NCBI GenBank assembly: GCA_027460535.1
Contig: JAPZAR010000029.1
Coordinates: 30,001-62,000, forward strand
Origin: Candidatus Methanoperedens sp.
GTDB taxonomy: Archaea; Halobacteriota; Methanosarcinia; Methanosarcinales; Methanoperedenaceae
Length of the DNA: 32,000 nt
Reading direction: 5' to 3'
The notes beneath the pieces were generated by a model. It worked only from the letters and a program-made list of their open reading frames with translations, did no database searches and was not told the DNA's origin. The position numbers were made by a program, and so were the translations under genes. Below are positions 3,309-29,728 of this stretch, piece after piece (the stretch's first letter is position 1; every line of letters starts with the position of its first letter).

Positions 3309-4673
3309 TTATTCCAACTGCGCCCTTATCTTGGAATCAAGTATCCTCAGGAACTCATTCTTTGCCTCTCTCGGGATAAAAGCCCCTGCCGCAATGTCAT
3401 GCCCGCCTCCTGTGCCTCCCACCTCTTTCGCAGCCTGGCCTATAGCAACTCCAAGGTTCAAGCCTTTTCTGATAAGGTCGTAATTTCCCCGGGATGATAC
3501 CTTGACCCCGCCGTCAGAATCGGCAAATGCAATAATCGGCAGGTTCTTGTTATTGATAAAAGATGCGCTCATCCCTGCAACTATGCCCACTATGGTCTCC
3601 CTTATCTTATTTCCGGAATCGAAATACTGCAGGTTCTCCATTTTAGTGGTCCCCTGCTCCTTGACGAGATTCAGCCCTTCGACAAGATTTTTCCTGTGGT
3701 CATTAAGAAGGGCGATAGCCTCATCATATTTCTTGCCCCTCTCGCCCATACAGACCGCAAGTCCGATATCGGCATGGTCGTAGCGCGCCGTGGCATTAAG
3801 AAGAGTCGAATATTCGGAGGCGTCCCTGACCTCGGTCCCTTCTCGCTCCTGCAGCAATGTATAAACTTCGCCTACCAGCCTCTGGACATTGCGTGCCTGT
3901 AACCCGGAGGAAAGACAGAACTGGATAAGGGCAGAAACTATCTGCTGCTTTTCATGAGCTTCAAGGTCGATCCACCGCCTCCATTTTTCACCATGCTGGC
4001 GTATGCCGATCTTTTTAAGGAATTCTATACTGGCGTCTTCGTTTCCGGTGATTCCCGGAAGGTATGGGTCAGAGGAATATTGCAGCAGCTTGAAGATCGG
4101 TCTTGTCTGTTTGCCGAAAAGGAGCAGGTCTTTCTCATGGCACAATACCCCGTACCTTGTCCCGTCATCCAGGATAGACCGGTTAGCGCCTATCAACTGT
4201 CCGTGCTTCATGTGCTGCAGGTCCCCAACAGCTCCCACAATGGCAAGTGCGGCAAGGTCCCTGTTCTCGCCAAGCGATGATACCATGGTATATGTCACAC
4301 CTGACCCGCTTATTTCATTCGCGCCGTTTATCCCGAAAAGATGAGGATTCAGGTGGCGTTCATGCGTTCCATGAGGCTGGTGGTGGTCTGAGATCACAGC
4401 ATTGATATTCAAAGAGCTTATTGCATCAAGCATTCCGCTCCCCAAGTCGGTGAATACGACGAGTTCGGGGTTTTTATCTGCAATCTCTGTGAGCGCAGAT
4501 ATATCAAGCTGTTTTAAAAAACGGGTTTCGTATTCGATGCCCGCCCTTTCAAGCGCTTTACACATTATGGCCGCAGATGTCAGGCCGTCTGCATCGATGT
4601 GTGACACCACGAGAGCAGAAGCGTGCTTCTTAATATAATCCGCACATTGTTGGGCTCTCAATTGAAATGTCAT
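3309..4673 (-). CDS. DHH/DHHA1 phosphoesterase, archaeal RecJ/Cdc45-like (GAN-type) nuclease
   Basis: 454 aa carrying the four DHH-family motifs: HIDADGLTS, FTDLGSG, SDHHQP and GGGHDIAAG. Size and layout resemble archaeal RecJ-like proteins. Confidence 0.8.
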   Translation of the reverse strand: MTFQLRAQQCADYIKKHASALVVSHIDADGLTSAAIMCKALERAGIEYETRFLKQLDISALTEIADKNPELVVFTDLGSGMLDAISSLNINAVISDHHQPHGTHERHLNPHLFGINGANEISGSGVTYTMVSSLGENRDLAALAIVGAVGDLQHMKHGQLIGANRSILDDGTRYGVLCHEKDLLLFGKQTRPIFKLLQYSSDPYLPGITGNEDASIEFLKKIGIRQHGEKWRRWIDLEAHEKQQIVSALIQFCLSSGLQARNVQRLVGEVYTLLQEREGTEVRDASEYSTLLNATARYDHADIGLAVCMGERGKKYDEAIALLNDHRKNLVEGLNLVKEQGTTKMENLQYFDSGNKIRETIVGIVAGMSASFINNKNLPIIAFADSDGGVKVSSRGNYDLIRKGLNLGVAIGQAAKEVGGTGGGHDIAAGAFIPREAKNEFLRILDSKIRAQLE

Positions 4674-4729
4674 ACGCGTTTTTATAGTTCGTTAATATAT
4701 TAAACCATTTTGCCAGCAGGGGGAAAGTA

Positions 4730-5194
4730 TTACTTCAGGCTTTTAAGGTACCCTATGAGATCATTAAGGTCGCTGTCAGACATATGCCACACGGGCATGG
4801 GAGTATCAAGCGGTTCTCCGTCTTCGTCGATACCCTTCGTGATCGCACGTTTAATTAGGTCATCAGTATAATTTTCGCCCGCCAACGAGGAGTATCGTAT
4901 ATCAGGAGCATCGAATGTCCACATCATCATTCTTCCCCTCCCTCCTGTTCCATCAGGACCGTGGCACGCGGCACAGCTCATCATCCCTCCGCGCATTGTC
5001 ATCGTCCCTATGGATGAGATTATAGCTTCTCCAGAATCGGTTGTAGCGGTGAAATAGATCCTCTCACCGTTGCTCTGGAAAGCCGTTGCCTGCCTGGTGT
5101 AATAAGATGGGGATCTGTAAGAGAGCAGGAAAAGACCTATCATTCCTACAACAATAAGAATTATTGCGATCTGCAGGTTTCCCGGTTTTTTCAT
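4730..5194 (-). CDS. Membrane-anchored monoheme c-type cytochrome, Met-rich
   Basis: 154 aa with an N-terminal TM helix (LQIAIILIVVGMIGLFLL) and a single CxxCH heme motif (SCAACHGPDG). The motif is flanked by Met-rich stretches (MTMRGGMM, GRMMMW). The start overlaps the upstream gene stop in an ATGA overlap. Confidence 0.7.
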   Translation of the reverse strand: MKKPGNLQIAIILIVVGMIGLFLLSYRSPSYYTRQATAFQSNGERIYFTATTDSGEAIISSIGTMTMRGGMMSCAACHGPDGTGGRGRMMMWTFDAPDIRYSSLAGENYTDDLIKRAITKGIDEDGEPLDTPMPVWHMSDSDLNDLIGYLKSLK

Positions 5195-5433
5195 ACCAGG
5201 TCTTTCTTTTTCTCCTCGAATTCTTCCTTGTTTATCTCACCGCGGGCGTATCTTTTCTTCAGAATTTCAAGGGCAGATTCTTGTTCTGTTTTAGCTCCAC
5301 CATGTTCCCACAGATATTTGATGAGCAACACAAGACCGATGAGCACCAATATCGAGAATATCAGCCCCAGGATCCAGTAACCTCCTCCCATCATTCCATA
5401 ACCGTAACCGTCCATCATTCCTTGCATGATCAA
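5191..5433 (-). CDS. SHOCT-domain small membrane protein with a Met/Gly-rich N-terminus
   Basis: 80 aa: MIMQGMMDGYGYGMMGGGYW, then one TM helix, then a C-terminal ALEILKKRYARGEINKEEFEEKKKDL that matches the SHOCT short C-terminal domain. Confidence 0.7.
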   Translation of the reverse strand: MIMQGMMDGYGYGMMGGGYWILGLIFSILVLIGLVLLIKYLWEHGGAKTEQESALEILKKRYARGEINKEEFEEKKKDLV

Positions 5434-5539
5434 CCTCCACTAAGATAATTAATAATTGATTTAGTACTATAAAAAGACAGGGGCTGAAAGAAATATAAAA
5501 AAGGCAGGCGCTTGCCCACAGCGCCTTGTAATGCTAATA

Positions 5540-6391
5540 TTATTCGGTCACGAGAACATCCGGGGCTCGATGTCCTATCCTGCCAGCACTTTTTGCTTTT
5601 ATCCCGCTGATCTTTTCATGCGCAAGTTCTGCCGCTTTCTTTCCCGCAAGGAGCATACCGCCAAAAGTGGGTCCCATTCGCGGCGCGCCATATGTTGAGG
5701 TGGCTGACATGCCTGCAACGATAAGACCGGGATATATCTCATGTGTAAGCTCGACAGTCTGTTTTTCAGCCTCATCCACCCAGAGGGATCCGCAGCCTGG
5801 CGGCTCGGGAATATTTAATCTCTTTTGCTGCCAGAGACGCCTGACAAGGAAAGAATCGTGGCCTGTAGCATCTATTACCACTTTTGATCTTATCGCGATC
5901 GGATCCATGCAAGTAATGAATTTAGGCATCTGCTGCACGGGATACCACTGGATAACTACCCCTTCAACATGATCTTCCTTGAGGATCAAATCTTCTACGT
6001 TCGTGGAGTTCAGCAACTTCGCGCCGGCATCGCACGCGCTTGCGAGCATTTTCGAGACCATCTCAAAAGAATCGCAGACATAGAGTCCTTCTTCCACTTC
6101 CTTGAGTCTCACACCGCACTCTTCAAGTATCTTGTGGGCCGGTGCTCTCACCGTATTTTTGGGCATGAGAAAACCTCCCTGCCACATGCCTCCGCCGCCG
6201 TAAATATTTCTCTCGATCATGACAGTCTTGTGTCCCAACTCAGCCGCATACTTTGCAGTTGCCACCCCGCACGGTCCCGAACCCACAATTACGATATCGC
6301 TATCAAGAATATTCTTTATAAAATCATCCAGGAATTCATTTACTATTGTTTTCGTAACATGTATCTCACTAAGGCTTGTCATAAATTTCAC
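5540..6391 (-). CDS. thi4: Thiamine thiazole synthase (Thi4 family)
   Basis: 283 aa with a dinucleotide-binding motif IVIVGSGPCGVATAKY. Further Thi4-family pattern: GGGMWQGGFLMP, AGAKLLNSTNVEDLI..EGVVIQW, CMDPIAIRSKVVIDATGHD. Confidence 0.8.
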   Translation of the reverse strand: MKFMTSLSEIHVTKTIVNEFLDDFIKNILDSDIVIVGSGPCGVATAKYAAELGHKTVMIERNIYGGGGMWQGGFLMPKNTVRAPAHKILEECGVRLKEVEEGLYVCDSFEMVSKMLASACDAGAKLLNSTNVEDLILKEDHVEGVVIQWYPVQQMPKFITCMDPIAIRSKVVIDATGHDSFLVRRLWQQKRLNIPEPPGCGSLWVDEAEKQTVELTHEIYPGLIVAGMSATSTYGAPRMGPTFGGMLLAGKKAAELAHEKISGIKAKSAGRIGHRAPDVLVTE

Positions 6392-6510
6392 CTATGTCAA
6401 TAGGGCTTCTGCTGACCATAAACTTTTCTAAGGAGTACTGCAAGAAGCAGGAATAGGATTAAATAACAAGATTTATACAAAGGAAAAAAAATACTCCAAT
6501 AGGTCGAAAA

Positions 6511-6879
6511 ATGGAAAATATCCCCCTCTATACCATACTTTCAGGAAGTTCAGTTATCCTTTCCGTTCTTGGGCTATATTTTGTTGCAAAGATATGTGTA
6601 AGGTGGAAGAAAATGGATAAGGACGTTCTCAAAGCAAGGGTTTTTCTTAACAAGAAATTCCTGACAAAGAATTGGACATACGTCTTTCTTTCGGGAGCTT
6701 CCATGACGGTTCATCAGTCCATAGAATTCCTATCCTCATTATATCATGTCGCAGATATTCGTCTCGAAAGCATTTCCGAGATATTTGAGTTCATAACACT
6801 CGTATTCATCGTTGTGCTGGCATACGAATGGTACAGGATAATTTACCTGGAAGACAAGCCCTTCTTATTTAGCGCATAA
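6511..6879 (+). CDS. Hypothetical membrane protein
   Basis: 122 aa ORF with hydrophobic helices at both ends and no recognisable family. Its 3' end overlaps the convergent valS by 11 nt. Confidence 0.4.
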
Positions 6880-9685: not shown

Positions 9686-10618
9686 TTAGAAGTTATGTAT
9701 CTCTCTATGCTTTTTGAGGTAAGTTTTGTCTGGAATGTATTTTATAGGCATTCTAATCTTCTTCCCATTTAAATCAGAAATAGCGGTTGCAAGTATACTA
9801 CTCTTCGGCTTAAATGACTTTGTCACAATTACTTCATATTGATCAGAAATGGAGATTAACCCATTTTCGAAAGCGACATCATGGAGAACACAGAGACAAA
9901 TACCGTTTGTAGGATATGACGCTATTTTTATATCCTTGCTTACTGGCACAACGTGGCAACCTCTCAAAAACTGCCCATCATCAACATCGCACATGGCACA
10001 CTTACTTTGATAACACTCTAATAGTATATTACGAAAAGCCTGTTGAAAATTTCTGGTTTTAACCTTTCTCTCCGAAAATGTAGCACCCTTCCTTATACCT
10101 TCTTCATATTCCTGAATAATTTTGTCTTTTTTCACGACGTTCCATATTCCTAGCCCTCGCACCTTTTGTTCTGTTAAGGGCATGACGGTTGACAACCAAC
10201 CCTCTTGTTTATTGATTTTTTTTAGTTCTGTGCCCAGCCAGTTAACATGTAACGTGTGCTTATAGTCAACCGGTATAGGATTATAATAATATTCATCATC
10301 CACCTTACCAATCCCTGCAATTTCTTTTTGCCCTTTGTTAGCAATTATAATATCTCCCTTTTTAACATTTCTGAAGTCCAAAAGTTGTTGAGCATCTCGT
10401 GTTAGACGGGTTTTATAATTAGGGGCTGTGTAATAAGTATAATACGTTCGTAGTCTATCTTTAATTTGGTCTAAACTTAATTCTGATAAATCGCCGACCT
10501 TGGACCAGCCCATTGCAATTTTTTTCTCTTCAATGCAAATAGACCATTGCCTTTCCCAACCTCTGTGATCCCTTCCCCAATTCGACGGGGAGATTTTCAA
10601 ATAGCGAATATCTTTCAT
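9686..10618 (-). CDS. Two-domain protein: unassigned (possibly PUA-like/EVE-like) N-terminal domain fused to an HNH_2 nuclease. Candidate type IV (modification-dependent) restriction enzyme.
   Basis: 310 aa. The C-terminus CAMCDVDDGQFLRGCHVVPVSKD...TNGICLCVLHDVAFENGLISI fits the HNH_2 pattern (C..C...HI.P....NG..LC..H..FD.G). The N-terminal 160 aa (YLKISPSNWG...IAMGWSKVGDL...VKKGDIIIANKGQKEIAGIGKVDDEYYY) has a small beta-barrel reader-like pattern. The gene is visibly more AT-rich than its neighbours. Confidence 0.6.
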   Translation of the reverse strand: MKDIRYLKISPSNWGRDHRGWERQWSICIEEKKIAMGWSKVGDLSELSLDQIKDRLRTYYTYYTAPNYKTRLTRDAQQLLDFRNVKKGDIIIANKGQKEIAGIGKVDDEYYYNPIPVDYKHTLHVNWLGTELKKINKQEGWLSTVMPLTEQKVRGLGIWNVVKKDKIIQEYEEGIRKGATFSERKVKTRNFQQAFRNILLECYQSKCAMCDVDDGQFLRGCHVVPVSKDIKIASYPTNGICLCVLHDVAFENGLISISDQYEVIVTKSFKPKSSILATAISDLNGKKIRMPIKYIPDKTYLKKHREIHNF

Positions 10619-12419: not shown

Positions 12420-12506
12420 CGGGCGCGGAGGGAATTGAACCCCCGACCTACAGCTTGCTCCTTAGAAATTAGGAGGCTGCCGCCATATCCTCTAGGCCAC
12501 GCGCCC
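12420..12506 (-). tRNA. tRNA-Arg(CCU) with a 14-nt intron at the canonical 37/38 position
   Basis: Hand-folded cloverleaf on the minus strand. Acceptor GGGCGCG/CGCGCCC. D arm GCC(T)-AGAGGATA-(T)GGC. Anticodon stem GCAGC/GCTGT with loop CTCCTA|A, anticodon CCT at 12473-12471. The 14-nt intron ATTTCTAAGGAGCA contains AGGAG, which can pair with the anticodon region. T arm GGGGG-TTCAATT-CCCTC. Confidence 0.85.
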
Positions 12507-18866: not shown

Positions 18867-19125
18867 ACCTTTCTTGATAATGATGAAATAGTATATATAA
18901 CTCAACTTAACAGAGTTCCTTAACGTGCTTTCTTAATATAATTTCTTAACTATATTTACTAATATTTTATATTACCTTCAAGCGTAGGAGTGTTTGCCCT
19001 TCATGGGCAGGATAAAACAGGTGATAAAATGAATAACGAGAAACCGAATAGGACAGAAGAAGAAAGGGCAGCAGAGGAAATATTCCAGAAATATCCTCTA
19101 AACTTCGGTTAAGAGGCATCTTAAA

Positions 19126-20034
19126 ATGAGCTGGAGAAACAATATTGAACTATTAAGATTGTGCAACTCTCCAGCTTCTATAATTTCACCTTTCCCTATT
19201 TTTGCAATTTCCCTTTTTCTAATATCTCGCAGAGAGTTCAATATTCACGATTTACCCATTCTATTTGCCGGAATAGTTATCTCACTTTTTTCGAACTTTG
19301 GTTCTAACTTATGGAACCATTGCAATGATATAAAAGAGGATTTGGCACAAGGCAAGAAAACGATTTTAACACAGGATAGATCAATGCAAAAAACAGCACT
19401 GTTTATCGCTGTCATGCTCTACGCATTCTCTATACTCTTTGTTTATTATTTATCAATCGAACTTAAAAAGCCAATTTACTTGTTTTTTTTAATTTGGGCT
19501 TTTGCAACCTGGTGGTATTCGGATAATCTAATTCTTAAAAAAATTATTGGTTTTAGACTAAAAGAGCATTATATAGGTGAGTTTATCACCTATGGCGTTG
19601 CATGGCCCACGTATACATTGAGCATCTGGCTTGTATATTCTGATTTAAATGCCAAAGGAGTATTGACATCTGCGGCATTCTTTTTACTTAGCATATCAGC
19701 GCTACTGTTAAAGGATTTAAAAGACATAACAGGAGATAGGAAAGCTGGTTTAAAAACTTTTGGAGTAACATTCTCCCCTTCTCGACTAATACGATACTCC
19801 TCTTACATGATGTTGTTATTTTATTTTATCTTACTGAATCCACTTTCTTTAAATCTTTTTGGTATCGGTATTTTGGTCATGATCTTTCCATTCGTTTATT
19901 TTTTTAAAAATACCTTTGCCCACATGTATAAAAAAAACTGGGTTTTAGAGCTAGAAGATATGAAAGCACTGAAATGCATAGGCAAATCTATCTATGCATC
20001 GGTGATATTTATAGGGCTGAGCGCTTTTCATTAA
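19126..20034 (+). CDS. UbiA-superfamily integral-membrane prenyltransferase (divergent)
   Basis: 302 aa with about 8 hydrophobic helices. First motif NLWNHCNDIKEDLAQGKKT is a degenerate NxxxDxxxD. Second motif LLLKDLKDITGDRKAGLKTFGV fits the DxxGDxxxGxxT pattern seen in DGGGP-synthase and chlorophyll-synthase-type UbiA enzymes. Confidence 0.7.
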   Translation: MSWRNNIELLRLCNSPASIISPFPIFAISLFLISRREFNIHDLPILFAGIVISLFSNFGSNLWNHCNDIKEDLAQGKKTILTQDRSMQKTALFIAVMLYAFSILFVYYLSIELKKPIYLFFLIWAFATWWYSDNLILKKIIGFRLKEHYIGEFITYGVAWPTYTLSIWLVYSDLNAKGVLTSAAFFLLSISALLLKDLKDITGDRKAGLKTFGVTFSPSRLIRYSSYMMLLFYFILLNPLSLNLFGIGILVMIFPFVYFFKNTFAHMYKKNWVLELEDMKALKCIGKSIYASVIFIGLSAFH

Positions 20035-21404
20035 ATTTCCAAACAGGTATTTGTACCAGCATTTGTAAAAAAAATATTATCATTCGCTTCTGATAAATAA
20101 TTTCTTAACTGGAATTCAGGTGGAATATACGCTGAAGGAGGGTAAGATAAAATTCCAAAATAATTTTTACCTAATAGTTTTTTCACTTTATCTTTATATT
20201 CAAAAGTTTTCTCTCCGAATGTGGTTGCAACTCCTACATCAATGCAGAAATAAATAAAACTACCATTATTATATTTCAAATTATTTAAACTTGAGATGAA
20301 TGCATCAAATTTATCATTCACCATTTCATAAACTAGGGCAACCTTTTCTGAATAATCTGAAACATCCATAATTAGAGGGAACAGGTCGAATGGTAAAAAG
20401 TTGCCCATACCAATAACAAACGCTCCCTTTGTTTTTTTATTGAAAAAAAACAACCCATACGGTATGAAGATTTTATAGTCTCCTTTGTCAAGATTCCCTA
20501 AAATTTCTTTCTCTTTTTTATCAAATACATGTATCAGATTCTTTACTGCTTCGGGGGAGGGTATGCCATCCAGCGATATTAAAATATTTTTTTCAAAGTT
20601 TGCTTTAAATTCCTTTATAACTTTAAAGTTATTATTGATTATGCATCTTGTTTCATCAAGAGTTTTACCTTTATCAGGAAAGATCTCATCATATACAGCA
20701 TTTATATTCTCTTTCTCGATTGTGAGTGCAGCAATGCCTTCTTCTATATCCCTGAAGTTACAGAAAATGCTGGGAGAATTAAACCTCAGTTGTGTATGCA
20801 ATACGTTAATTCCTATAATCGGCACTTTATAATCGGTACTTTGTGCAAAAATATCAAGTACAGTCGGAGGTGGGTAGATAAATTTCTCTTTATCGCAGTA
20901 ATCTGCGAATTTTCCCGCATATTCTTTTTGTTTTTCCGGATTCGCTCTTTTGCATAATGTACTGTAATATAATCCTCTCGCACAAATTTGACTGACCTTA
21001 AACGCACTTGCCATATGTGCTAATGGAAAATGTAATATAACAACCCCTTTCTTGCAATCTATTTTTTTGGCGAGTTTTTTCGCAGATTCTATTGCACCAT
21101 TTTCATTCGCTCCTTGAACTCTTATCTTTGCGTCAGGGTCAGTGCATAGTACCAGCGCGGCACCATCCATTCTTAAATCATCTGGAAATATCATTCCATC
21201 CACAGAAGCGCCTATCTGTGGTATATCGCCATACTCTTCATGGAATATATCCAGCATGGACTGATATTTGCCGCCATACTTTAACGTGGCATAGAATAAA
21301 GCAAGGTCAGGTTTAAAATCCAGATGCAAATGAGCTTGCTCTAAAATATCCAGTGCAGCCTGCTTATGGTCTTTTTTATTACTGAAAAGCGTAAGAGATC
21401 TCAT
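20031..21404 (-). CDS. FIST-like (FIST_N/FIST_C) sensory-domain protein
   Basis: 457 aa. The N-terminal pattern ...AALDILEQAHLHLDFKPDLALFYATLKYGGKYQSMLDIFHEEYGDIPQIGASVDGMIFPD...DGAALVLC resembles FIST_N. Assignment is from memory of the family pattern only. Confidence 0.45.
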   Translation of the reverse strand: MRSLTLFSNKKDHKQAALDILEQAHLHLDFKPDLALFYATLKYGGKYQSMLDIFHEEYGDIPQIGASVDGMIFPDDLRMDGAALVLCTDPDAKIRVQGANENGAIESAKKLAKKIDCKKGVVILHFPLAHMASAFKVSQICARGLYYSTLCKRANPEKQKEYAGKFADYCDKEKFIYPPPTVLDIFAQSTDYKVPIIGINVLHTQLRFNSPSIFCNFRDIEEGIAALTIEKENINAVYDEIFPDKGKTLDETRCIINNNFKVIKEFKANFEKNILISLDGIPSPEAVKNLIHVFDKKEKEILGNLDKGDYKIFIPYGLFFFNKKTKGAFVIGMGNFLPFDLFPLIMDVSDYSEKVALVYEMVNDKFDAFISSLNNLKYNNGSFIYFCIDVGVATTFGEKTFEYKDKVKKLLGKNYFGILSYPPSAYIPPEFQLRNYLSEANDNIFFTNAGTNTCLEI

Positions 21405-21678
21405 TTCACCTTTTGTATTTTTGTCTCCGGGGCGTTTTTACTTTCCATTATATCCAGAATTTCAATTAGTTTGTTTGGGAATATATATTTTTCCGCTATA
21501 TTATTAAGATGCAGTGTTCTTAATATTTTAACCTTCTCACCAGGTTTAAAGGGAGAATGCCTAGGTCAACTTGATAAACATTCTATGAGGATGCAAAGGC
21601 AGAACTATATCTATTTTGGAGATTAATTTTAATCCGATACAGGTATCCATCGATTATTAATCCGAGGGAGGAAAAATT

Positions 21679-23244
21679 ATGAGCTTGGAAAAAAGTCAGG
21701 TCAGAGAGGCTATTAGAAAAAGTCAGGCTTTTCTGCTTAAAGGCGTAGAGAACCATTTGATATTAAATGGGAGAAGACAGCAAGAATTCCTAATAAATCC
21801 ATGCCCATTAGCCACAGCCCTTGCAATTCTAGCATCCGAGAGAAATTGTGAACCAGTAAAAAACGCAATCACCTGGCTTCGGAAAATACAGAATAAGGAT
21901 GGCGGATGGGGTTTTGCGGATAGCGTGCCCAGCGATATTAATAGCACTGCTCTATGCATTCTGGCTCTGGAAGAGACTGAAAGACAGATAGAAAAAAGAG
22001 CCCGCATTTTCATGAAAGAAAATGGTGGTTTCTCAAAAACAGAATGGTTTGTTCAAGTGATTTCAAGTTTATTTGACAAATACTCCCCGGATGAGATTCG
22101 TACTCCAGGTGTTGGTGCCTCAAGATTGCCTCTTCCGGAACTGCGATTTACACCTTCATTTTATGCTAATCTGAATCCTACTGCGAAAAATATGGTTTTT
22201 AGCCTTACCGCGCTGGAAATGTTGGCTAAAAAGGAAAATGCTAACAAAACACTGGGATTTTTAGAAAGTGTTCAGGGACTGGATGGTTCTTGGGATCAAG
22301 AGGTTATACTTACTTCTTTCGCAACATTGGCGTTTCAAAAAGCTAAAATAAATCCCAGAATAAATCCGAATCATTGGTTTTCCGAGGTGCAATATTCAGA
22401 TGGTGCTTGGCCAGCTTTCAACCAATTAGCTTGTTGGGATATAGGTTGGGCCAGTTCTATTCTTGCTGGAAAATTTTTGCGGGATGAAAGACTACAAAGA
22501 GCGAAAAAGTATCTTGAAGATGGAATGTATTTGGACGGAAGTTTTGGGTTCACATTGCCACATGCAGGGCCGGATATTGATGACACTGCAGTGGCTTTAA
22601 TAGGGCTTAAAAATCTCTGTTCAGAGAAAACTCTACAGACATCTCGATATTTAAAATTTATGCAGAATGCAGATGGAAGCTGGAGCACATTCCCGGAGTT
22701 CTTTGGCAGTCCCCCGTATTGCATTTCAGGAAAAGTTGTTCATTTACCAAGTGTGGATGTAACGTGTCATGTTTTAAAAGCCTTATACGACGAACCATTA
22801 ACAAATAAAGAACCTTTCATAGAGTCGGCTCTCGACTGGTTAGTCTCAGCTCAGAACAAAGATGGCTCATGGGAATCGACATGGTTCAGGGGTAATATCT
22901 ACGCGACTTCTGAGGCTATAACCACTTTGCATAAATTTGGCATTGAGGGAGAAACTATATCCAGAGGTTTAGAATGGGTTGGTGGTCAACAGCGCTCTGA
23001 TGGGAGTTTTGGCAATGGCACCGTACCAGAAACGTCATTAGCGTTAACAGCATTCATGGCATGCCTTTTTGAAAAAGTGGATGTTGATAAGGCAGTTCAA
23101 TTCTTATTGGATGAACAAAACCCCGACGGATCTTTTTCAAGATCTTATACAGGAATCTATTTCGGTATTTATTATAATGACCCCATATATTTTACCTATT
23201 TGGGATTAAATGCGCTTGAACTATACAATAAAATGGAAAAATAA
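21679..23244 (+). CDS. Class II terpene cyclase, squalene-hopene-cyclase-like
   Basis: 521 aa. It has eight QW-type repeats: [64 protein letters not shown]. A DxDDTA motif, [14 protein letters not shown], lies at nt 22573-22590. Blocks collinear with A. acidocaldarius SHC as I recall it: [13 protein letters not shown] vs [36 protein letters not shown] vs [38 protein letters not shown] vs ETQRPDGGWDEPYYTG. RBS GGGAGG lies upstream. Confidence 0.75.
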   Translation: [521 protein letters not shown]

Positions 23245-23309
23245 AATTCAAAGAACATTTCGGGTGCGAAATTTTCAATAAAAACCTATTCGTAAAATAG
23301 AAAGTTCTT

Positions 23310-23735
23310 CTAAATGTCAAGTACGACCCTTGCGATCCAGTTTTGTCCTTTCTTCCTGACCTCGTATAGATGGTAGGTGACTGCTTTTACGTCCGATCTC
23401 AAGGTATGCTTTTCCCGGTCGATGGTCTCGCCGGATATTATTGCGTAAAGTTCGTATTCATCATTTTTTTTGATTGTCACATCAAATCTTCCAAAGAGAA
23501 TCGATTCGGCGTCCTTAAGATAGACCAGCTCTGAGAGCCAGTCAAAAAGAAGCCCCTCAATAGATTCGTTTTTCAATTCGATCTTTCTGCTAACCGCTGG
23601 TTTTATGCTTTTCGTATCTGCCATGACCTCAGAGATCGCGAATGCCGCATCCCTGAACAATTCTTCCAGATTCCTGCCTTCGGCCTCAAAGGCAACATCC
23701 GAAGTAGCGATGTCCTCAAGATATCGAAAAGGCAT
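23310..23735 (-). CDS. Archease (RtcB tRNA-ligase cofactor)
   Basis: 141 aa: MPFRYLEDIATSDVAFEAEGRNLEELFRDAAFAISEVM...LLFDWLSELVYL...VKAVTYHLYEV...ARVVLDI. This is the canonical archease pattern. Confidence 0.85.
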   Translation of the reverse strand: MPFRYLEDIATSDVAFEAEGRNLEELFRDAAFAISEVMADTKSIKPAVSRKIELKNESIEGLLFDWLSELVYLKDAESILFGRFDVTIKKNDEYELYAIISGETIDREKHTLRSDVKAVTYHLYEVRKKGQNWIARVVLDI

Positions 23736-24100: not shown

Positions 24101-25186
24101 ATGGTGAAGAAAAGTGAGATGAAGAAAGAAGAAGGTCAAGAAAAAAAAGATGTTTTCAAAGTATGGGCCGACAGCTATACCGCTGTTTCAAAAATGTGGG
24201 AGGAATCCTACATGAACCTGTACAAGCCCTGGATAGAAACCACGGGTGAAATGTTCGAAAAAGCAGTTGAGCTATCAAAGGAAGCCACGCCTGAGAAGTA
24301 CAAAGAATTCTATGATGAATGGATAAAGGCACAGCAGAAGACGTTTGGGAAAATCTATCCTATCCCGATGCAGAAATCCGACCGGGAGACGCTTGAGAAA
24401 CTTCTTGTAAGCGCGGAGGAAGCGAACAACCTCTTCAAATCCTGGGTCGCCGAGATAGAGGAGAACACGCAGAGAACGCAAGATTTGCTGAAAGGTACAC
24501 CCGACCCCGAAAAGTACAGGGATCATTTTAATATGTGGATGAAATCCTATGAAAAAATATTCGATGAGTTCATTTCCATGCCGGCTATGGAAAGCACGAA
24601 GGAAATATTCGGGAATTATGGCGGCATACCTAATATGTACTTAAAGAATTTTGCAGAGATGTCAAAAATATGGAAGAATTCGTTCTCTGACTTGTACTTG
24701 CCCTGGGTTGACCCCATGTTCAGGCTCTCCGGGAAGACGGCTGAGCTCTCAAGGGGAAACGCAACTCCTGAAGACTACAAGGAATTCTACAATCTTTGGA
24801 TGAAAACATACCAGGAAACATATGGCAAGATGTTCAATGTCCAATCCATGAAGCCGTCAAAGGAAATGCTTGAAAATTTCCTCGAGAGCACCAATATCTA
24901 TCTCAACATGTATAAAACGTGGATAGCTGCCATGGAAAAGATGTCGGAAAAGGTCAAAGACCTGTCGGGACGCACGTCCGATCCTGAAGCTTATAAGGAA
25001 TTTTACGACCTCTGGGTAACGACATATGAGAAAGCTTTCGAAGACTTCTTCGAGAACATGCCCACTATTGGCCCTATGAAGAAGATGATGGAACCTGTAA
25101 AGAGCGCGGCCAAGATATACGCCGACACATTTGCGAACATGTCAAATATGTGGATCGAGTCTTTTCCCAGCACAGCCCGGGCCTGA
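24101..25186 (+). CDS. PhaE-N-like tandem-repeat protein (candidate phasin or PHA-granule-associated protein)
   Basis: 361 aa with four copies of a module ending (T/D)PExY(K/R)(E/D)(F/H)(Y/F)..W....Y....F. These are TPEKYKEFYDEWIKAQQKTFGKIY (from nt 24287), DPEKYRDHFNMWMKSYEKIFDEF (from nt 24500), TPEDYKEFYNLWMKTYQETYGKMF (from nt 24764) and DPEAYKEFYDLWVTTYEKAFEDFF (from nt 24980). The same module occurs in the downstream PhaE as SPEAYRDFYRLWIETYSETFKEFL. Confidence 0.6.
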   Translation: MVKKSEMKKEEGQEKKDVFKVWADSYTAVSKMWEESYMNLYKPWIETTGEMFEKAVELSKEATPEKYKEFYDEWIKAQQKTFGKIYPIPMQKSDRETLEKLLVSAEEANNLFKSWVAEIEENTQRTQDLLKGTPDPEKYRDHFNMWMKSYEKIFDEFISMPAMESTKEIFGNYGGIPNMYLKNFAEMSKIWKNSFSDLYLPWVDPMFRLSGKTAELSRGNATPEDYKEFYNLWMKTYQETYGKMFNVQSMKPSKEMLENFLESTNIYLNMYKTWIAAMEKMSEKVKDLSGRTSDPEAYKEFYDLWVTTYEKAFEDFFENMPTIGPMKKMMEPVKSAAKIYADTFANMSNMWIESFPSTARA

Positions 25187-25188
25187 GT

Positions 25189-25749
25189 ATGGAAAGAACC
25201 TGTTTTGAATCCACCCACGAGTTTTTTGAGATGTGGTTAAAGACCTATGAAGCAACCTATGGCAGGCTCATAGAAATGCCTCCCATGGGCCCGATGCGCG
25301 AGAAATCAGAAAAAGTGATGAAGAATTTTTCGCTTTCAGTCAACCTTTACACGGCATGGATGGAATCCCTGGCCGATTTCCAGAGTGTTTTCATTGAAGC
25401 CATGCGCAGGATGCGCGAAAAGATGGCAGTGGAGGGGGAGGTCAGCCCTGAAGCATATAGGGATTTTTATAGGTTATGGATTGAAACTTACAGCGAGACG
25501 TTCAAAGAATTCTTGAAGTCAGGCCATTTTTCCTCGGGCATGGGCAGGCTCATGTCATATTCTATCGATTTCCAGAAAAATAACAGGGAAATGCTTGAGG
25601 AGAATTACATGAAAACATTGGGCCTTCCCACAAGGACCGAGATCGATGAGATAAACAGGGAAGTCTATTTTCTCAAGAAAAAGGTAAAGGAGCTGGCAGG
25701 AGCGTCAAGGAACTCGCAGGGGATGGGAGGACTCCATGAACAGTCTTGA
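25189..25749 (+). CDS. phaE: PHA synthase subunit PhaE (class III)
   Basis: I set the start at ATG 25189, 2 nt after the upstream stop, giving 186 aa. The C-terminal LGLPTRTEIDEINREVYFLKKKVKEL is the typical PhaE C-terminal helix. It lies immediately upstream of phaC and overlaps it. Confidence 0.7.
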   Translation: MERTCFESTHEFFEMWLKTYEATYGRLIEMPPMGPMREKSEKVMKNFSLSVNLYTAWMESLADFQSVFIEAMRRMREKMAVEGEVSPEAYRDFYRLWIETYSETFKEFLKSGHFSSGMGRLMSYSIDFQKNNREMLEENYMKTLGLPTRTEIDEINREVYFLKKKVKELAGASRNSQGMGGLHEQS

Positions 25750-26920
25750 TTTCATAGAGAGGCAGATAAAATTCGTAAGAGGGATGGAAATACTGCTGGA
25801 ACCTCCCGAAATTACAGTTGGGACTACCCCTTCGGAGGTCGTCTATGCAGAAGACGACATGAAGCTTCTGCATTACATTCCAACATCAGAAAAATCGTAT
25901 CCGATTCCGGTGTTGATAGTATATGCATTTGTTAACAGGTATTACATCCTGGATCTCCAGCCCGATAAGAGCGTGATAAAAAAGCTGCTGAATGAGGGCC
26001 TCGATGTCTACATCATTGATTGGGGATACCCTTCGGGGGCAGACATGTACCTGACCCTTGATGATTACGTTAACGGCTATATAAATAATGCAGTGGACAA
26101 AGTCAGGGAAATATCGGGAACGGAAAAGATCACACTGCTCGGGGTGTGCCAGGGGGGAACGCTTTCCGTGATGTACGCCTCACTTTATCCTGAAAAAGTG
26201 AAGAACCTTGTTGCCCTTGTGACACCGGTGAATTTCGATACGGATAAAGGACTTCTCCATATCTGGGCAAAAAGCCTGGATGTTGACAAGATGGTTGACT
26301 ACTATGGGATAGTACCAGGGGATCTGCTGAATGTTGGATTCCTGCTCACGGATCCTTTCAGGCTTATGATAGACAAGTATGTGGGATTATTCGAGAGGAT
26401 CGAAGGCGAGCCTGATAATGCGGGTTATCTCAGGAATGAGGAGACGGTCAAGACCTTCCTGCGGATGGAGAAATGGATATTTGACAGCCCAGACCAGGCA
26501 GGCGAAGCTTTTCGGCAGTTCATGAAGGACTGCTACCAGAACAACCTTCTCATCAAGAATGAGATGAAGCTAGACGGGAAGAAGATCGACCTGAAAAAAA
26601 TAACGATGCCCCTATTAAATGTTATGGCGGAGACGGATCATCTTGTTCCCAACGCTGCGAGCATTCCGCTTAACGATGCGGTTGCGAGCGAAGATAAGGA
26701 GACACTCATTTTCCCGACGGGGCATATCGGTATCTTTGTTGGTTCCAAATCGCAGAAAGAGGTTTGTCCGAAGATTGCGGAGTGGCTGAAGCCGAGATCT
26801 TTACCGGAAGAGATGAAAGAGCGATCGGAAGAGCAAAGAGAGCAAGCTGGAGTGGAAAAACCCGGACAACCGGTAGTGCGTAAAAGAAGAGGTCGTAAGG
26901 CGAGGAGAAGCGTAAAATGA
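25736..26920 (+). CDS. phaC: PHA synthase catalytic subunit PhaC (class III)
   Basis: 394 aa alpha/beta hydrolase. It has the lipase-box-like GVCQGG, DWGYP, and candidate Asp (AETDHLVP) and His (PTGHIGIF) triad residues. The C-terminal tail is charged and basic (RKRRGRKARRSVK). Confidence 0.85.
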   Translation: MNSLDFIERQIKFVRGMEILLEPPEITVGTTPSEVVYAEDDMKLLHYIPTSEKSYPIPVLIVYAFVNRYYILDLQPDKSVIKKLLNEGLDVYIIDWGYPSGADMYLTLDDYVNGYINNAVDKVREISGTEKITLLGVCQGGTLSVMYASLYPEKVKNLVALVTPVNFDTDKGLLHIWAKSLDVDKMVDYYGIVPGDLLNVGFLLTDPFRLMIDKYVGLFERIEGEPDNAGYLRNEETVKTFLRMEKWIFDSPDQAGEAFRQFMKDCYQNNLLIKNEMKLDGKKIDLKKITMPLLNVMAETDHLVPNAASIPLNDAVASEDKETLIFPTGHIGIFVGSKSQKEVCPKIAEWLKPRSLPEEMKERSEEQREQAGVEKPGQPVVRKRRGRKARRSVK

Positions 26921-27657
26921 GACTCGATAACAAAGTTGCAATTATTACAGGTGGAGGGAGCGGTATTGGCAGGGAAACTGCAATGCTGTTCGCCGAGGAG
27001 GGTGCAAAGGTGGCAATAACTGGAAGGACGGATGAGAGAATAAAGAAAGTCTGCGAAGAGATAAGCGAAAAAGGTGGAAAATCAATCTATGTCCGGGGGG
27101 ATGTTTCAATAAAGGAAGACATGGATGAAGTCGTCAATAAGACTATCAATGAATTTGGGCGGATTGATATCCTGATAAACAACGCAGGGATCAATCAGGA
27201 TGCTTTAGTAACTAAAATGACCAGGGAACAGTGGAATGGTGTCATTAACATCGATCTTTCCGGCGCTTTCAATTGCATCCAGGCAGTGGTCGATGTAATG
27301 ATCAACCAGGGTAGTGGTGTGATTATCAATGCGTCATCAATTTCAGGCATATATGGTAATATCGGACAGGTAAATTACGCTTCGGCAAAGGCTGGGCTAA
27401 TAGGTTTGACCAAGACCCTTGCAAAGGAACTCGGTAAAAAAGGCATCCGTGTCAATGCGGTCGCTCCGGGATTCACAGTTACACCCATGACTTCGAAAGT
27501 ACCTGAAAAAATTATGAATATAATGATAGAGAAGACCCCTCTTCGCAGGCTGGCAGAGCCACGGGATATTGCCTACGCATACCTTTATCTCGCTTCGGAT
27601 GAGGCGAGGTTCGTTAACGGGGCAGTGCTCTCGGTCGACGGGGGATTGACCATCTGA
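26917..27657 (+). CDS. phaB: SDR-family 3-oxoacyl/acetoacetyl-CoA reductase (PhaB/FabG-like)
   Basis: 246 aa with TGGGSGIGRE, NNAG and YASAKAG (YxxxK). ATGA overlap with phaC. The PhaB role is inferred from operon context. Confidence 0.65.
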   Translation: MRLDNKVAIITGGGSGIGRETAMLFAEEGAKVAITGRTDERIKKVCEEISEKGGKSIYVRGDVSIKEDMDEVVNKTINEFGRIDILINNAGINQDALVTKMTREQWNGVINIDLSGAFNCIQAVVDVMINQGSGVIINASSISGIYGNIGQVNYASAKAGLIGLTKTLAKELGKKGIRVNAVAPGFTVTPMTSKVPEKIMNIMIEKTPLRRLAEPRDIAYAYLYLASDEARFVNGAVLSVDGGLTI

Positions 27658-27682
27658 GATTTAAAACAAGTGGGAGAATTAA

Positions 27683-28861
27683 ATGAACAAAGCAGTGATT
27701 GTTTCGGCAACGAGGACCGCGATAGGGAAATTTGGCGGGAGTCTTAAGGATTTCACGCCCGGACAACTTGGTTCCGTGGTGCTGAAAGATGCGCTGAAAA
27801 GGGCGCAGGTTGAACCTGACGAGGTTGATGAAGTTATCATGGGAAATGTTCTTTCAGGGGGCCATGGCATGAATATTGCCAGGCAATCCTCGATATGGGC
27901 AGGGCTGCCGGAAAAGGTACCTTCCTGCTGCGTGAACAAAGTTTGCGGCTCTGGATTGAAATCGGTTATCTTTGGTGCCCAGGCAATCATGCTGGGCGAT
28001 GAGGATATCATACTCACCGGAGGAACGGAATCCATGTCGGCATCCATGTATGCCCTTAAAAAAGCACGCTGGGGGATCAAGATGGGCAATGATGAGACAA
28101 TTGACACGATGATAAGTGACGGGCTCTGGGATATTTTCAATAATGTCCACATGGGGATTACGGCAGAAAATGTGGCTGAGAAATATCACATCAGGCGGGA
28201 AGACCAGGACGAATTCTCAGCAAAAAGCCAGAATAAATCAGAATCTGCCATAAAAGCCGGGAGGTTCAAGGATGAAATAGTTCCTGTAGAAGTCCCGCAG
28301 CCAAAAGGCGACCCTCTTCTTTTTGATACGGATGAGTTCCCGAGATTCGGAACAACAAAAGAAGTACTATCCAGGTTGAAACCGGCATTCAAAAAAGATG
28401 GCACAGTGACGGCAGGGAATGCGTCCGGGATCAATGACGGGGCTGCATCGGTCCTTCTCATGTCGGAAGAAAAGGCCCGGGATAAGGGCCTGGAGCCGCT
28501 TGCAACCATCATTGGCTACGCGTTCTGCGCAATACCTCCGGAAATAATGGGAATGGGACCGGTTTGCGCAACCAGGAAAGTCCTTGAGCGCGCGGATCTG
28601 AAACTGGATGATATTGATCTTATAGAAGTGAATGAAGCATTTGCAGCCCAGTCGGTTGCCGTCAGCAAAGAATTGGGATGGGATATGGACAGGGTAAATG
28701 TTAACGGGGGCGCCATAGCCCTCGGGCATCCAATAGGTGCGAGCGGAGCCAGGATACTGGTCACATTGATCCATGAATTGATAAGAAGAGATAGCACTTA
28801 CGGACTTGCCACACTCTGTATCGGGGGTGGGCAGGGTATTGCAGTAGTAATTGGGAGGTAG
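27683..28861 (+). CDS. phaA: Acetyl-CoA acetyltransferase (thiolase II, PhaA-like)
   Basis: 392 aa with VNKVCGSGLKS (active-site Cys), NEAFAAQ, GHPIGASGARI and CIGGGQGIA, the classical biosynthetic thiolase signatures. Confidence 0.85.
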   Translation: MNKAVIVSATRTAIGKFGGSLKDFTPGQLGSVVLKDALKRAQVEPDEVDEVIMGNVLSGGHGMNIARQSSIWAGLPEKVPSCCVNKVCGSGLKSVIFGAQAIMLGDEDIILTGGTESMSASMYALKKARWGIKMGNDETIDTMISDGLWDIFNNVHMGITAENVAEKYHIRREDQDEFSAKSQNKSESAIKAGRFKDEIVPVEVPQPKGDPLLFDTDEFPRFGTTKEVLSRLKPAFKKDGTVTAGNASGINDGAASVLLMSEEKARDKGLEPLATIIGYAFCAIPPEIMGMGPVCATRKVLERADLKLDDIDLIEVNEAFAAQSVAVSKELGWDMDRVNVNGGAIALGHPIGASGARILVTLIHELIRRDSTYGLATLCIGGGQGIAVVIGR

Positions 28862-28867
28862 ATAGAA

Positions 28868-29728
28868 ATGGAAAACAATAGGAATGGAGCGCGTCTGAAA
28901 GGCAAAGTAGCCCTGGTAACCGGGGGCTCAAGAGGTATTGGCATGGCGATAGCAATGAGGATGGCGGAGGAAGGCGCGGATGTTGCCATAAATTACCAGA
29001 ATACCAGAGAGCATGCAGAGAACGTATCTAAACTGGTAGACCACATAGGCACGATCGATGAAATCGGGAAATTATCGGTGATAATAGATCGTATGGATAC
29101 CAAGGAGCACGCAAAGGAGGCATCGAAACTGGTGGAATCAATGGGCTGCCACTCATGTATCGTTCAGGCGAACGTGAGCGATATCGAGCAGGTGAACAAA
29201 ATGAAAGACGAGGTGCTCAAAAAATTCGGCAAAATAGATATTCTGGTCAATAACGCAGGAATCACCAGGGATAAATCGTTCGTCAAAATGACCCCGGAAA
29301 TGTGGTCAGAAGTAATATCTGTGAACCTGAATGGGGCGTTCAACTGCACCAAAGCCGTAATAGACGATATGCTGGAACGAAAATACGGGCGCATAATCAA
29401 TATCTCCTCTGTCATAGGGAGGATGGGCAATTTCGGACAGGCGAACTATGCAGCATCGAAAGCGGGAATGATCGGCCTTACACAGACGCTTGCAAAAGAA
29501 TTCGCAGGTAAAGGCATAACGGTCAATGCGATAGCACCAGGATTCATTGAAACCGATATGGTGAGATCTGTCCCGAAAGAAGCGATGGAAAAAATCCTGG
29601 CAAAAATACCCCTCGGCAGACTGGGAAAGCCTGCAGAGGTCGCCGCAGCCGTGGCCTATCTTGTTTCCCCTGAAGGTGAATACATAACAGGTCAGGTTTT
29701 AGATATAAATGGGGGACTTTACATATAA
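28868..29728 (+). CDS. Second SDR reductase (FabG-like) carrying an internal 32-aa partial duplication
   Basis: 286 aa with TGGSRGIGMA, NNAG and YAASKAG. It is about 40 aa longer than the first SDR because of an insert between beta2 and beta3 that repeats TREHAENVSKLVDHIG as TKEHAKEASKLVESMG. Confidence 0.8.
   Translation: MENNRNGARLKGKVALVTGGSRGIGMAIAMRMAEEGADVAINYQNTREHAENVSKLVDHIGTIDEIGKLSVIIDRMDTKEHAKEASKLVESMGCHSCIVQANVSDIEQVNKMKDEVLKKFGKIDILVNNAGITRDKSFVKMTPEMWSEVISVNLNGAFNCTKAVIDDMLERKYGRIINISSVIGRMGNFGQANYAASKAGMIGLTQTLAKEFAGKGITVNAIAPGFIETDMVRSVPKEAMEKILAKIPLGRLGKPAEVAAAVAYLVSPEGEYITGQVLDINGGLYI

Follow-up and report, generated by a model that had tools for sequence, protein, structure and literature searches.

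The nearest solved relative of the protein described here is the squalene-hopene cyclase (SHC) of A. acidocaldarius (hereafter AaSHC; PDB 1gsz/3sqc), a class II (protonation-type) terpene cyclase. In archaea, class I synthases have been characterized, Asgard diterpenoid cyclases making halimadienyl diphosphate have also been characterized, with 64 archaeal homologues listed (McShea et al., bioRxiv 10.1101/2025.02.07.637177), and MstE-like monodomain homologues have been noted in Methanosarcina acetivorans (PMC12324236). Here we describe a putative class II cyclase encoded within a 32,000-nucleotide stretch of Candidatus Methanoperedens sp. DNA (hereafter the window; assembly GCA_027460535.1, contig JAPZAR010000029.1, positions 30,001 to 62,000). 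An earlier note, made from the sequence of the window alone, drew attention to this gene and held that archaea are not known to carry out class II cyclization. In view of the Asgard and Methanosarcina reports that statement is outdated, and the window cyclase is not the first of its kind in archaea. The archaeal taxa named by McShea et al. (bioRxiv 10.1101/2025.02.07.637177) do not include Methanoperedens, and in the literature, including a 2026 review of the family, we found no description of the subfamily to which the protein belongs, of its Bacillota members, or of any Methanoperedens cyclase.

On balance, the account we favor is that the product of the gene is a class II cyclase competent in catalysis, that its substrate would be a regular polyprenyl chain, cyclized at the ω-end, and not squalene, and that the gene would have reached Methanoperedens by an old inter-domain transfer. 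The catalytic site, the substrate pocket, the gene neighborhoods of relatives and the phylogeny each bear on this account.

Fold, catalytic site and pocket of the cyclase

The open reading frame (ORF) of 521 codons proposed by the earlier note is real: its ATG start is conserved in orthologues (MSLEKS, MSIEKS or MNLEKS), and the product is 100% identical to a hypothetical protein deposited at NCBI for a metagenome-assembled genome (MAG) of “Candidatus Methanoperedens sp.” Both halves of the SHC architecture are matched in Pfam (SQHop_cyclase_C, 2.6e-33; SQHop_cyclase_N, 4.9e-20), along with weaker matches to Prenyltrans and to the TED_complement toroid domain. In a phmmer search of the PDB, residues 285–499 align with AaSHC 359–606 (E 3e-21), PDIDDTAV standing opposite PDVDDTAV and WFRGNIYAT opposite WGVNYLYGT, so that the blocks of the catalytic half pair as the note had claimed. 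An AlphaFold2 model built from a 32-sequence family alignment (pLDDT 86.5, pTM 0.88) has AaSHC (3sqc) as its top Foldseek match, with a query-normalized TM score of 0.75 (E 2e-19). Human oxidosqualene cyclase (0.73–0.74), SsDMS (0.67–0.68), Rv3377c (0.66) and ent-copalyl diphosphate (CPP) synthase (0.64) are also matched; all matches to SHC, DMS, oxidosqualene cyclase and CPP synthase have a probability of 1.00, at TM scores of 0.63–0.75. The eight QW-type repeats are all found, five being canonical (QxxDGxW) and three degenerate (DGSF, with the Q missing from one).

Individual residues were mapped in a MAFFT alignment of AaSHC, eight further SHCs and 15 family members, the AaSHC reference being 100% identical to 1gsz_A over 631 residues (Table 1). 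The DIDDTA motif occupies the correct catalytic position, aligned with D374–A379 of AaSHC, and D301 is equivalent to the proton donor D376. Across 32 family members, including relatives only 30–35% identical, no variation is seen at D299, D301, D302, T303, D360, H364, W402 and W253, and next to none at A304 and Y408. The DIDDTA motif as a whole is also invariant in all Methanoperedens and Bacillota members of the tree set described below. As judged from these alignments, the initiation machinery of SHC is fully conserved in the window cyclase, and fold, correctly placed DxDD and QW repeats together confirm, at the level of sequence and predicted structure, its membership of the class II superfamily.

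The pocket into which this machinery would fire is different. NCBIfam models place the protein below their cutoffs, both for hopene cyclase (TIGR01507, 118.7 bits against 431.1) and for squalene/oxidosqualene cyclases (TIGR01787, 114.7 against 322.7). By the alignment, E45, E93, R127 and W133 of AaSHC are replaced by T, L, E and I. W169 is T in the window cyclase and Y in most relatives; I261, Q262 and P263 become E/D, V/I and I across the subfamily (E, V and I in the window cyclase); F437 becomes S, or C in a few relatives; F605 becomes I, L or W; Y609 becomes D or E (D in the window cyclase); and F365 is deleted in the window cyclase. The cavity set W169, I261, Q262, P263, F365, F601, F605, Y609 and E45/E93/R127 is replaced or deleted in the cyclase and its subfamily, and all of these residues are kept in the eight control SHCs of the same alignment. 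In SHC these are the residues that fold rings C–E and end the pentacyclic cascade. Two of the replacements yield acidic residues that are invariant in the subfamily, E/D208 and D/E501.

The protein is also about 110 residues shorter than SHC. The note had put the missing length in the N-terminal part; in the alignment it is instead made up of internal deletions, the largest (about 55 residues) equivalent to AaSHC ~185–240 and smaller ones falling at ~350–364, ~395–405 and ~535–550. The segment 185–240 presumably includes the membrane-dipping helix of AaSHC and its region of monotopic membrane association. The window cyclase has no hydrophobic stretch, its maximum Kyte-Doolittle mean over 19 residues being 1.13. 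The replaced distal residues, the internal deletions and the lack of a hydrophobic segment point to an enzyme whose initiation chemistry is SHC-like but whose substrate pocket is different, and whose membrane association probably differs as well. With the ring C–E residues replaced, E/D208 and D/E501 newly present and the 185–240 segment missing, the window cyclase probably does not make hopene from squalene, and the note's suggestion of another substrate appears probable.

Gene neighborhoods and the probable substrate

Relatives were collected by scanning a single genome for each GTDB species. The best 80 loci were kept, and conserved neighbors emerged from clustering the roughly 1,000 ORFs of these loci. 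In Methanoperedens two arrangements are seen. In the first (type A: the window, L005, L089 and L090), a solo cyclase gene lies just past a core pair of genes encoding a UbiA-family prenyltransferase and a FIST/AF0772_C-domain protein. In the second (type B: Ca. M. nitroreducens Mnv1 (L006), L091 and L092), a cyclase orthologue 72–73% identical to that of the window is part of a cluster in the order PadR, UbiA, radical S-adenosylmethionine (radical-SAM)/SPASM protein, cyclase, two radical-SAM/SPASM proteins and ABC ATPase, after which Mnv1 has an ABC-2 permease. The two radical-SAM/SPASM proteins encoded after the cyclase are AhbD/NirJ-like, and the cluster UbiA is closest to digeranylgeranylglyceryl phosphate (DGGGP) synthase, in all these cases below the model cutoffs. 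Upstream of PadR, Mnv1 carries a gene resembling IdsA and synthases of geranylfarnesyl (GFPP) or geranylgeranyl diphosphate (GGPP). The Mnv1 cluster UbiA differs from the core UbiA of the window, and only three close homologues of it turn up among 5.8 billion proteins, for which reason the type A genomes probably lack the UbiA/radical-SAM/ABC cluster.

Bacterial contexts are of other kinds. Many Bacillota relatives lie among genes for a SAM methyltransferase, an ABC-2 transporter, a HepT-like medium-chain isoprenyl diphosphate synthase (IDS) and an ABC1/UbiB kinase, which looks like a quinone or sesquarterpene setting; the context of the Desulfosporosinus youngiae cyclase is uninformative on its own. 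Among Chloroflexota the order IDS–cyclase–UbiA is followed by an ApbA-like reductase, DegV, an LpxL-type acyltransferase and PlsY, and looks like a glycerolipid setting. The conserved cluster of L051–L064 (Chloroflexota/Ktedonobacterales), with a polyprenyl synthase and a DGGGP-synthase-like UbiA, suggests an undescribed bacterial glycerolipid bearing a cyclized prenyl group. In three of the Chloroflexota cyclases (L053, L054 and L056) a regular-expression search gave no match to DxDD[T/S].

Every informative context thus supplies a regular polyprenyl diphosphate through an IDS, and often a UbiA-type transferase. Together with the acidic, rebuilt distal pocket and the selection acting on a solo gene outside any cluster, these contexts argue that the substrate would be a common cellular polyprenyl compound: GGPP or GFPP, the tail of a prenyl quinone or an unsaturated precursor of ether lipids. 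In the mechanism we propose, D301, with H364 as its polarizing partner and D299 and D302 to either side, would start a cation-olefin cascade by protonating a linear all-trans isoprenoid at its terminal double bond. Cyclization would be confined to the ω-terminal units of a regular head-to-tail chain (C20–C35) and yield an end with one to three rings; the polar head, be it diphosphate, quinone or glycerol phosphate, would stay at the mouth of the cavity. The chain would be supplied by synthesis of the GGPP/GFPP type, and a UbiA-type prenyltransferase would attach it to its acceptor before cyclization, as with MstE, or after it, as with diterpene cyclases.

Several observations weigh against this proposal. 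The contexts vary by lineage, quinone-like in Bacillota, glycerolipid-like in Chloroflexota and radical-SAM/ABC-associated in Mnv1, and so indicate no single substrate. The window cyclase stands alone, and the UbiA gene beside it occurs in genomes without the cyclase too; their adjacency may be coincidental, since this UbiA is a core gene. In the conserved residues of the subfamily, neither a family-specific cluster of Lys/Arg, the mark of a diphosphate site, nor a Mg-binding motif was identified, and the sole invariant basic position is K170, which corresponds to R171 of AaSHC. The mapping of residues in the γ-domain half depends on an alignment at about 20% identity. Published lipid studies of Methanoperedens, which did not target cyclic terpenoids, report no cyclic terpenoids, quinones or squalene. 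Finally, the neighbor-joining tree places the archaeal clade beside the bacterial one as its sister, not within it, a topology that fits transfer in either direction.

The strongest competitor is a narrower version of the same proposal, in which the enzyme would be of the class II diterpene/sesquiterpene cyclase type, converting GGPP or GFPP into a bicyclic prenyl diphosphate for later attachment by a UbiA. A length of 521 residues in two domains matches bacterial diterpene cyclases and SsDMS, in Mnv1 and Chloroflexota the orthologue or relatives have short-chain IDS and UbiA genes at their flanks, and GGPP is always made by archaea, the Asgard enzymes performing exactly such chemistry. Set against this are the closer similarity to SHC than to the diterpene cyclases and DMS (113 bits against 44–72 with the family profile), the lack of an identified basic cluster or Mg-binding motif noted above, and the His partner of the catalytic Asp, which we take to be a feature of SHC and not of diterpene cyclases. 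We regard this version as possible, though clearly the less probable.

That the protein is a true SHC, with which the archaeon would convert squalene into hopanoids or some other pentacyclic triterpenoid, is improbable. Sequence and fold alike make SHC its closest solved relative, the two have identical initiation machinery, and squalene and hydrosqualenes are generally known to occur in methanogen-related archaea, but the failed NCBIfam cutoffs, the replaced or deleted cavity residues, the deletion equivalent to AaSHC 185–240 and a long, fully supported branch apart from SHCs led us to reject orthology and hopanoid synthesis, and no squalene-synthase or hpn genes were found in the window or in related loci. 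The note's description of an SHC-like class II cyclase therefore holds for the class II machinery, which is intact, and not for SHC orthology. Less probable still is a non-catalytic α/α-toroid protein, isoprenoid-binding or structural, that merely keeps the repeat motifs: the weaker Prenyltrans and TED_complement matches would suit it, but near-invariant catalytic residues among members 30–35% identical would not be expected of it, related loci lie among biosynthetic genes, and dN/dS values of 0.13–0.26 in 15 pairwise comparisons of six Methanoperedens orthologues indicate that the cyclase is maintained by purifying selection.

If a polyprenyl chain is indeed cyclized at its ω-end, what might the product be? 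ω-Cyclized menaquinones exist in Nocardia, which gives a cyclized quinone tail a precedent. Methanoperedenaceae conserve the futalosine menaquinone pathway (PMC7327174). A further step, which we put forward tentatively and think rather unlikely, is that some anaerobic methane-oxidizing archaea make an undescribed, oxygen-independent cyclic isoprenoid lipid, the Mnv1 product being tailored by its three radical-SAM/SPASM enzymes and exported by the ABC system; an ω-cyclized menaquinone side chain or a cyclized prenyl ether lipid may serve as examples. We did not find the Mnv1-type combination of UbiA, cyclase, three radical-SAM/SPASM proteins, ABC exporter and upstream polyprenyl synthase described in the literature.

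Archaeal residence and origin of the gene

The contig is archaeal. The window encodes an archaeal RecJ (604 bits), AMP phosphorylase (759 bits), archease, ValRS, RNase Z, a sulfide-dependent Thi4-type thiazole synthase and a polyhydroxyalkanoate operon, and an identical cyclase protein with identical flanks is encoded on at least seven contigs from independent projects, the longest of 73.7 kb. The GC content of the gene (40.5%) lies inside the range of the window (32–50%). The surroundings listed by the earlier note stand as regards archease, AMP phosphorylase and Thi4; the several intron-containing tRNAs do not, ARAGORN and Rfam finding only one in the window (12420–12506, minus strand, 87 nt). 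ARAGORN gave it no assignment; inspection by eye identifies it as tRNA-Arg(CCU), interrupted after position 37 by an intron of about 14 nt.

These findings exclude, for practical purposes, a bacterial gene placed in an archaeal window by mis-binning or chimeric assembly, a reading of next to no probability even though the closest relatives outside Methanoperedens are all bacterial and one related contig was deposited under a Ruminiclostridium MAG: archaeal genes lie on both flanks within one contig, the arrangement recurs in independent assemblies, orthologues at 70–75% identity sit in syntenic Methanoperedens backbones, and the GC content fits. The “Ruminiclostridium” contig (L092 1–8614; GCA_012027035.1, VEPD01000042.1) itself carries the Methanoperedens-type cluster. 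Its UbiA is 86% identical to that of Mnv1 and is accompanied by an adjoining cobB/CfbB-type a,c-diamide synthase gene, for which the generic cobB model passed and the F430 CfbB model came second, at 490.7 bits against a cutoff of 560. These two features make it the more likely that this contig is the mis-binned one, and it is probably archaeal.

How the gene sits in the archaeal backbone can be seen from a Methanoperedens genome without it, in which the same backbone continues and a 155-bp spacer replaces the whole cyclase block. Homology stops exactly at two gene ends, the left one being the end of the FIST/AF0772_C gene, and a block of about 2 kb, comprising the cyclase and its upstream region, is thus a clean presence/absence polymorphism. 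The core UbiA is represented by more than 120 Methanoperedens variants at 64–76% identity, reaches no NCBIfam equivalog, and keeps its synteny with and without the cyclase. A functional operon of the cyclase with this UbiA was considered and is weakened by the presence of the UbiA in the same place in cyclase-less genomes. The core UbiA and FIST genes (window 19001–21000) are markedly AT-rich, at 32–34% GC against 41–50% across most of the window.

At the corresponding FIST|AF0774 junction, where the window species carries the cyclase, Mnv1 has a gene for a 398-residue flavoprotein of the geranylgeranyl-reductase family (L087 9317–10513, minus strand, FZMP01000224.1; GG-red-SF, 89 bits; Pfam match to a squalene-epoxidase domain). 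This replacement hints that isoprenoid-modifying accessory genes may tend to collect at the junction. In L005 a duplicated AF0774/AF0772_C pair (4413–6556, minus strand) lies downstream of the cyclase, the second AF0772_C being 58% identical to the FIST protein of the window.

Homologue searches return a tight Methanoperedens clade of about eight variants at 70–75% identity. The next relatives, from Desulfosporosinus, Desulfitobacterium, Dichloromethanomonas and other Bacillota, are 30–35% identical and 520–545 residues long; true SHCs match the window cyclase over only about 40% of its length. Among the best 80 loci of the GTDB-species scan, the archaea are confined to two Methanoperedens species, including Mnv1; about 45 loci are nearly all from Bacillota of the Desulfitobacteriaceae/Peptococcaceae type, one is from Deferrimicrobium, and those from Chloroflexota/Ktedonobacterales are 25–27% identical. 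The subfamily is rare, given that a HMMER search of 1.84 billion cluster representatives yielded only nine with E ≤ 1e-30.

A neighbor-joining tree was built from 504 columns with 200 bootstraps and a sampling of SHCs and subfamily members that left out the epoxy-polyprenyl cyclases (Lon15, AtoE, Bra4, PlaT2), the PVC-type “SHC-like” clade and SqhC. Bootstrap support is 100% for Methanoperedens, for the Bacillota-type clade, for the two as sisters, and for these joined by Chloroflexota, all apart from the SHCs across a long branch. The resulting Methanoperedens/Desulfitobacteriaceae/Chloroflexota subfamily is monophyletic, with proteins of about 520–580 residues that share the deletions and the invariant E/D208 and D/E501.

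The graded pattern of Methanoperedens, then Desulfitobacteriaceae/Peptococcaceae and then Chloroflexota suggests an old transfer between domains. The cyclases of the window and L005 have 74% amino acid identity, in line with the flanking core genes (UbiA 67%, FIST 73%, dehydroquinase 70%), and this equal divergence likewise implies an old acquisition. Passage from bacteria to the archaeon is the more probable direction, as the gene is broadly distributed in bacteria and patchy in a single archaeal genus. After its entry the gene would have been lost or relocated in different Methanoperedens species.

Table 1. Coordinates in the window of the cyclase gene, its sequence features and adjoining genes. 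Residue numbers refer to the 521-residue product; AaSHC equivalents are given in brackets.
Feature	Position	Strand	Basis
CDS, 521-aa putative two-domain (β-γ) class II terpene cyclase, ATG start	21679..23244	+	ORF, Pfam, AlphaFold2, Foldseek
DIDDTA catalytic acid motif, D299/D301/D302/T303/A304 (D374/D376/D377/T378/A379)	22573..22590	+	phmmer and MAFFT alignment to AaSHC
D360-V-T-C-H364; D360 (D447), H364 (H451), catalytic Asp partner	22756..22770	+	Alignment
W402...Y408 (W489 and Y495), initiation site	22882..22902	+	Alignment
W253 (W312)			Alignment
QW repeat 1, canonical, aa 71	21868..21909	+	
QW repeat 2, canonical, aa 199	22252..22293	+	
QW repeat 3, canonical, aa 238	22369..22410	+	
QW-type repeat 4, degenerate, aa 282	22504..22545	+	
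QW repeat 5, canonical, aa 329	22642..22683	+	
QW repeat 6, canonical, aa 392	22831..22872	+	
QW-type repeat 7, degenerate, W to F, aa 437	22969..23010	+	
QW-type repeat 8, degenerate, W to F, aa 479	23095..23136	+	
Upstream non-coding region travelling with the cyclase	21405..21678	+	Read from sequence
Inverted repeat ATTTCG-GGTG-CGAAAT then T run, 12 nt past the cyclase stop; possible terminator	23257..23275	+	
Divergent UbiA-family prenyltransferase, core Methanoperedens gene; possible partner	19126..20034	+	Pfam UbiA, 1.7e-18
FIST/AF0772_C-domain protein, core gene; left boundary of the cyclase insertion	20031..21404	-	
Archease, convergent with the cyclase; right boundary in the window species	23310..23735	-	Pfam Archease, 1.1e-41

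A Shine-Dalgarno-like GGGAGG lies at 21666–21671, 7 nt 5′ of the cyclase ATG. Two antisense ORFs within the gene (21723–22013 and 22371–22724, minus strand) were taken as chance ORFs. Directly downstream is a complete polyhydroxyalkanoate set (24101–29728, plus strand) encoding two PhaE-like proteins, PhaC, a short-chain dehydrogenase, a thiolase and a second dehydrogenase. Elsewhere in the window (9686–10618, minus strand), a 310-residue protein has a C-terminal match to a model of phosphorothioated-DNA-binding restriction endonucleases (55.6 bits against a cutoff of 180) and may be defense-related.

Significance and comparison with described cyclases

To the lateral acquisitions for which the Methanoperedens lineage is already known (PMC7327174), the cyclase contributes a clear instance of inter-domain transfer, involving Bacillota and Methanoperedens. 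Polycyclic terpenoids rank among the major molecular fossils; at present hopane-like or other cyclic terpanes are read as bacterial and steranes as eukaryotic. If archaea of the anaerobic methane cycle proved to be a source of acid-cyclized isoprenoids, a caveat would have to be added to such readings, and a new biomarker for nitrate- or metal-dependent methane oxidation might be gained. A lipid or biomarker class combining SHC-type acid chemistry with archaeal radical-SAM chemistry would, if real, also be new. With the proton-donor machinery of SHC kept, the cavity rebuilt and the 185–240 segment lacking, the subfamily may further serve as a soluble scaffold for biocatalysis. Its interest for the lipid biochemistry of archaea and for biomarker geochemistry is tempered by its rarity and patchy distribution. 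An enrichment culture of Ca. M. nitroreducens Mnv1 exists, which should make the question directly testable.

How does the window cyclase compare with the enzymes already described? The Asgard halimadienyl-diphosphate synthases are likewise class II cyclases in archaeal genomes, and show archaea to be capable of such chemistry. They belong to the diterpenoid-cyclase clade with Rv3377c and plant CPP synthases, whereas the window cyclase is nearer to SHC than to Rv3377c. MstE (6sbb) is a possible mechanistic analog for the UbiA-linked clusters, in that class II chemistry is performed on a prenyl chain already attached to its head group by a UbiA-type transferase. It is nevertheless a single domain with a DxD motif, in contrast to the two domains and DxDDTA of the window cyclase, and the match between them is poor (26 bits, TM 0.42).

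SsDMS (7xq4), PtmT2 (5bp8) and Rv3377c (6vpt) resemble the window cyclase as soluble two-domain proteins of about 500–520 residues, with TM scores of 0.64–0.74. Their similarity to the family profile is lower than that of SHC (PtmT2, 50.7 bits; Rv3377c, 44.5 bits), and they take prenyl diphosphates, a look at the conserved residues of the window subfamily having identified no diphosphate site. SqhC, the sporulenol synthase of the Bacillus sesquarterpene (C35) pathway, is an SHC-related enzyme that acts, as proposed here for the window cyclase, on a chain derived from a regular head-to-tail polyprenyl and not on squalene. The HepT-like heptaprenyl-diphosphate-synthase gene adjoining the Bacillota relatives recalls the same pathway. 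The window subfamily is a separate, long-branched clade in whose loci no YtpB-like gene was seen, and is set apart by the description of SqhC as a protein of about 630 residues that groups next to SHC (PMC12324236).

SHC itself differs from the window cyclase in sequence (about 20% identity) and in that the latter has an archaeal host and a context free of hpn and squalene-synthase genes. It is all the same the best match by sequence (113.2 bits with the family profile) as well as by fold, and the two share the β-γ α/α-barrel architecture, the QW repeats and the DxDDTA motif, together with the machinery formed in AaSHC by D447, H451, W489, Y495 and W312.

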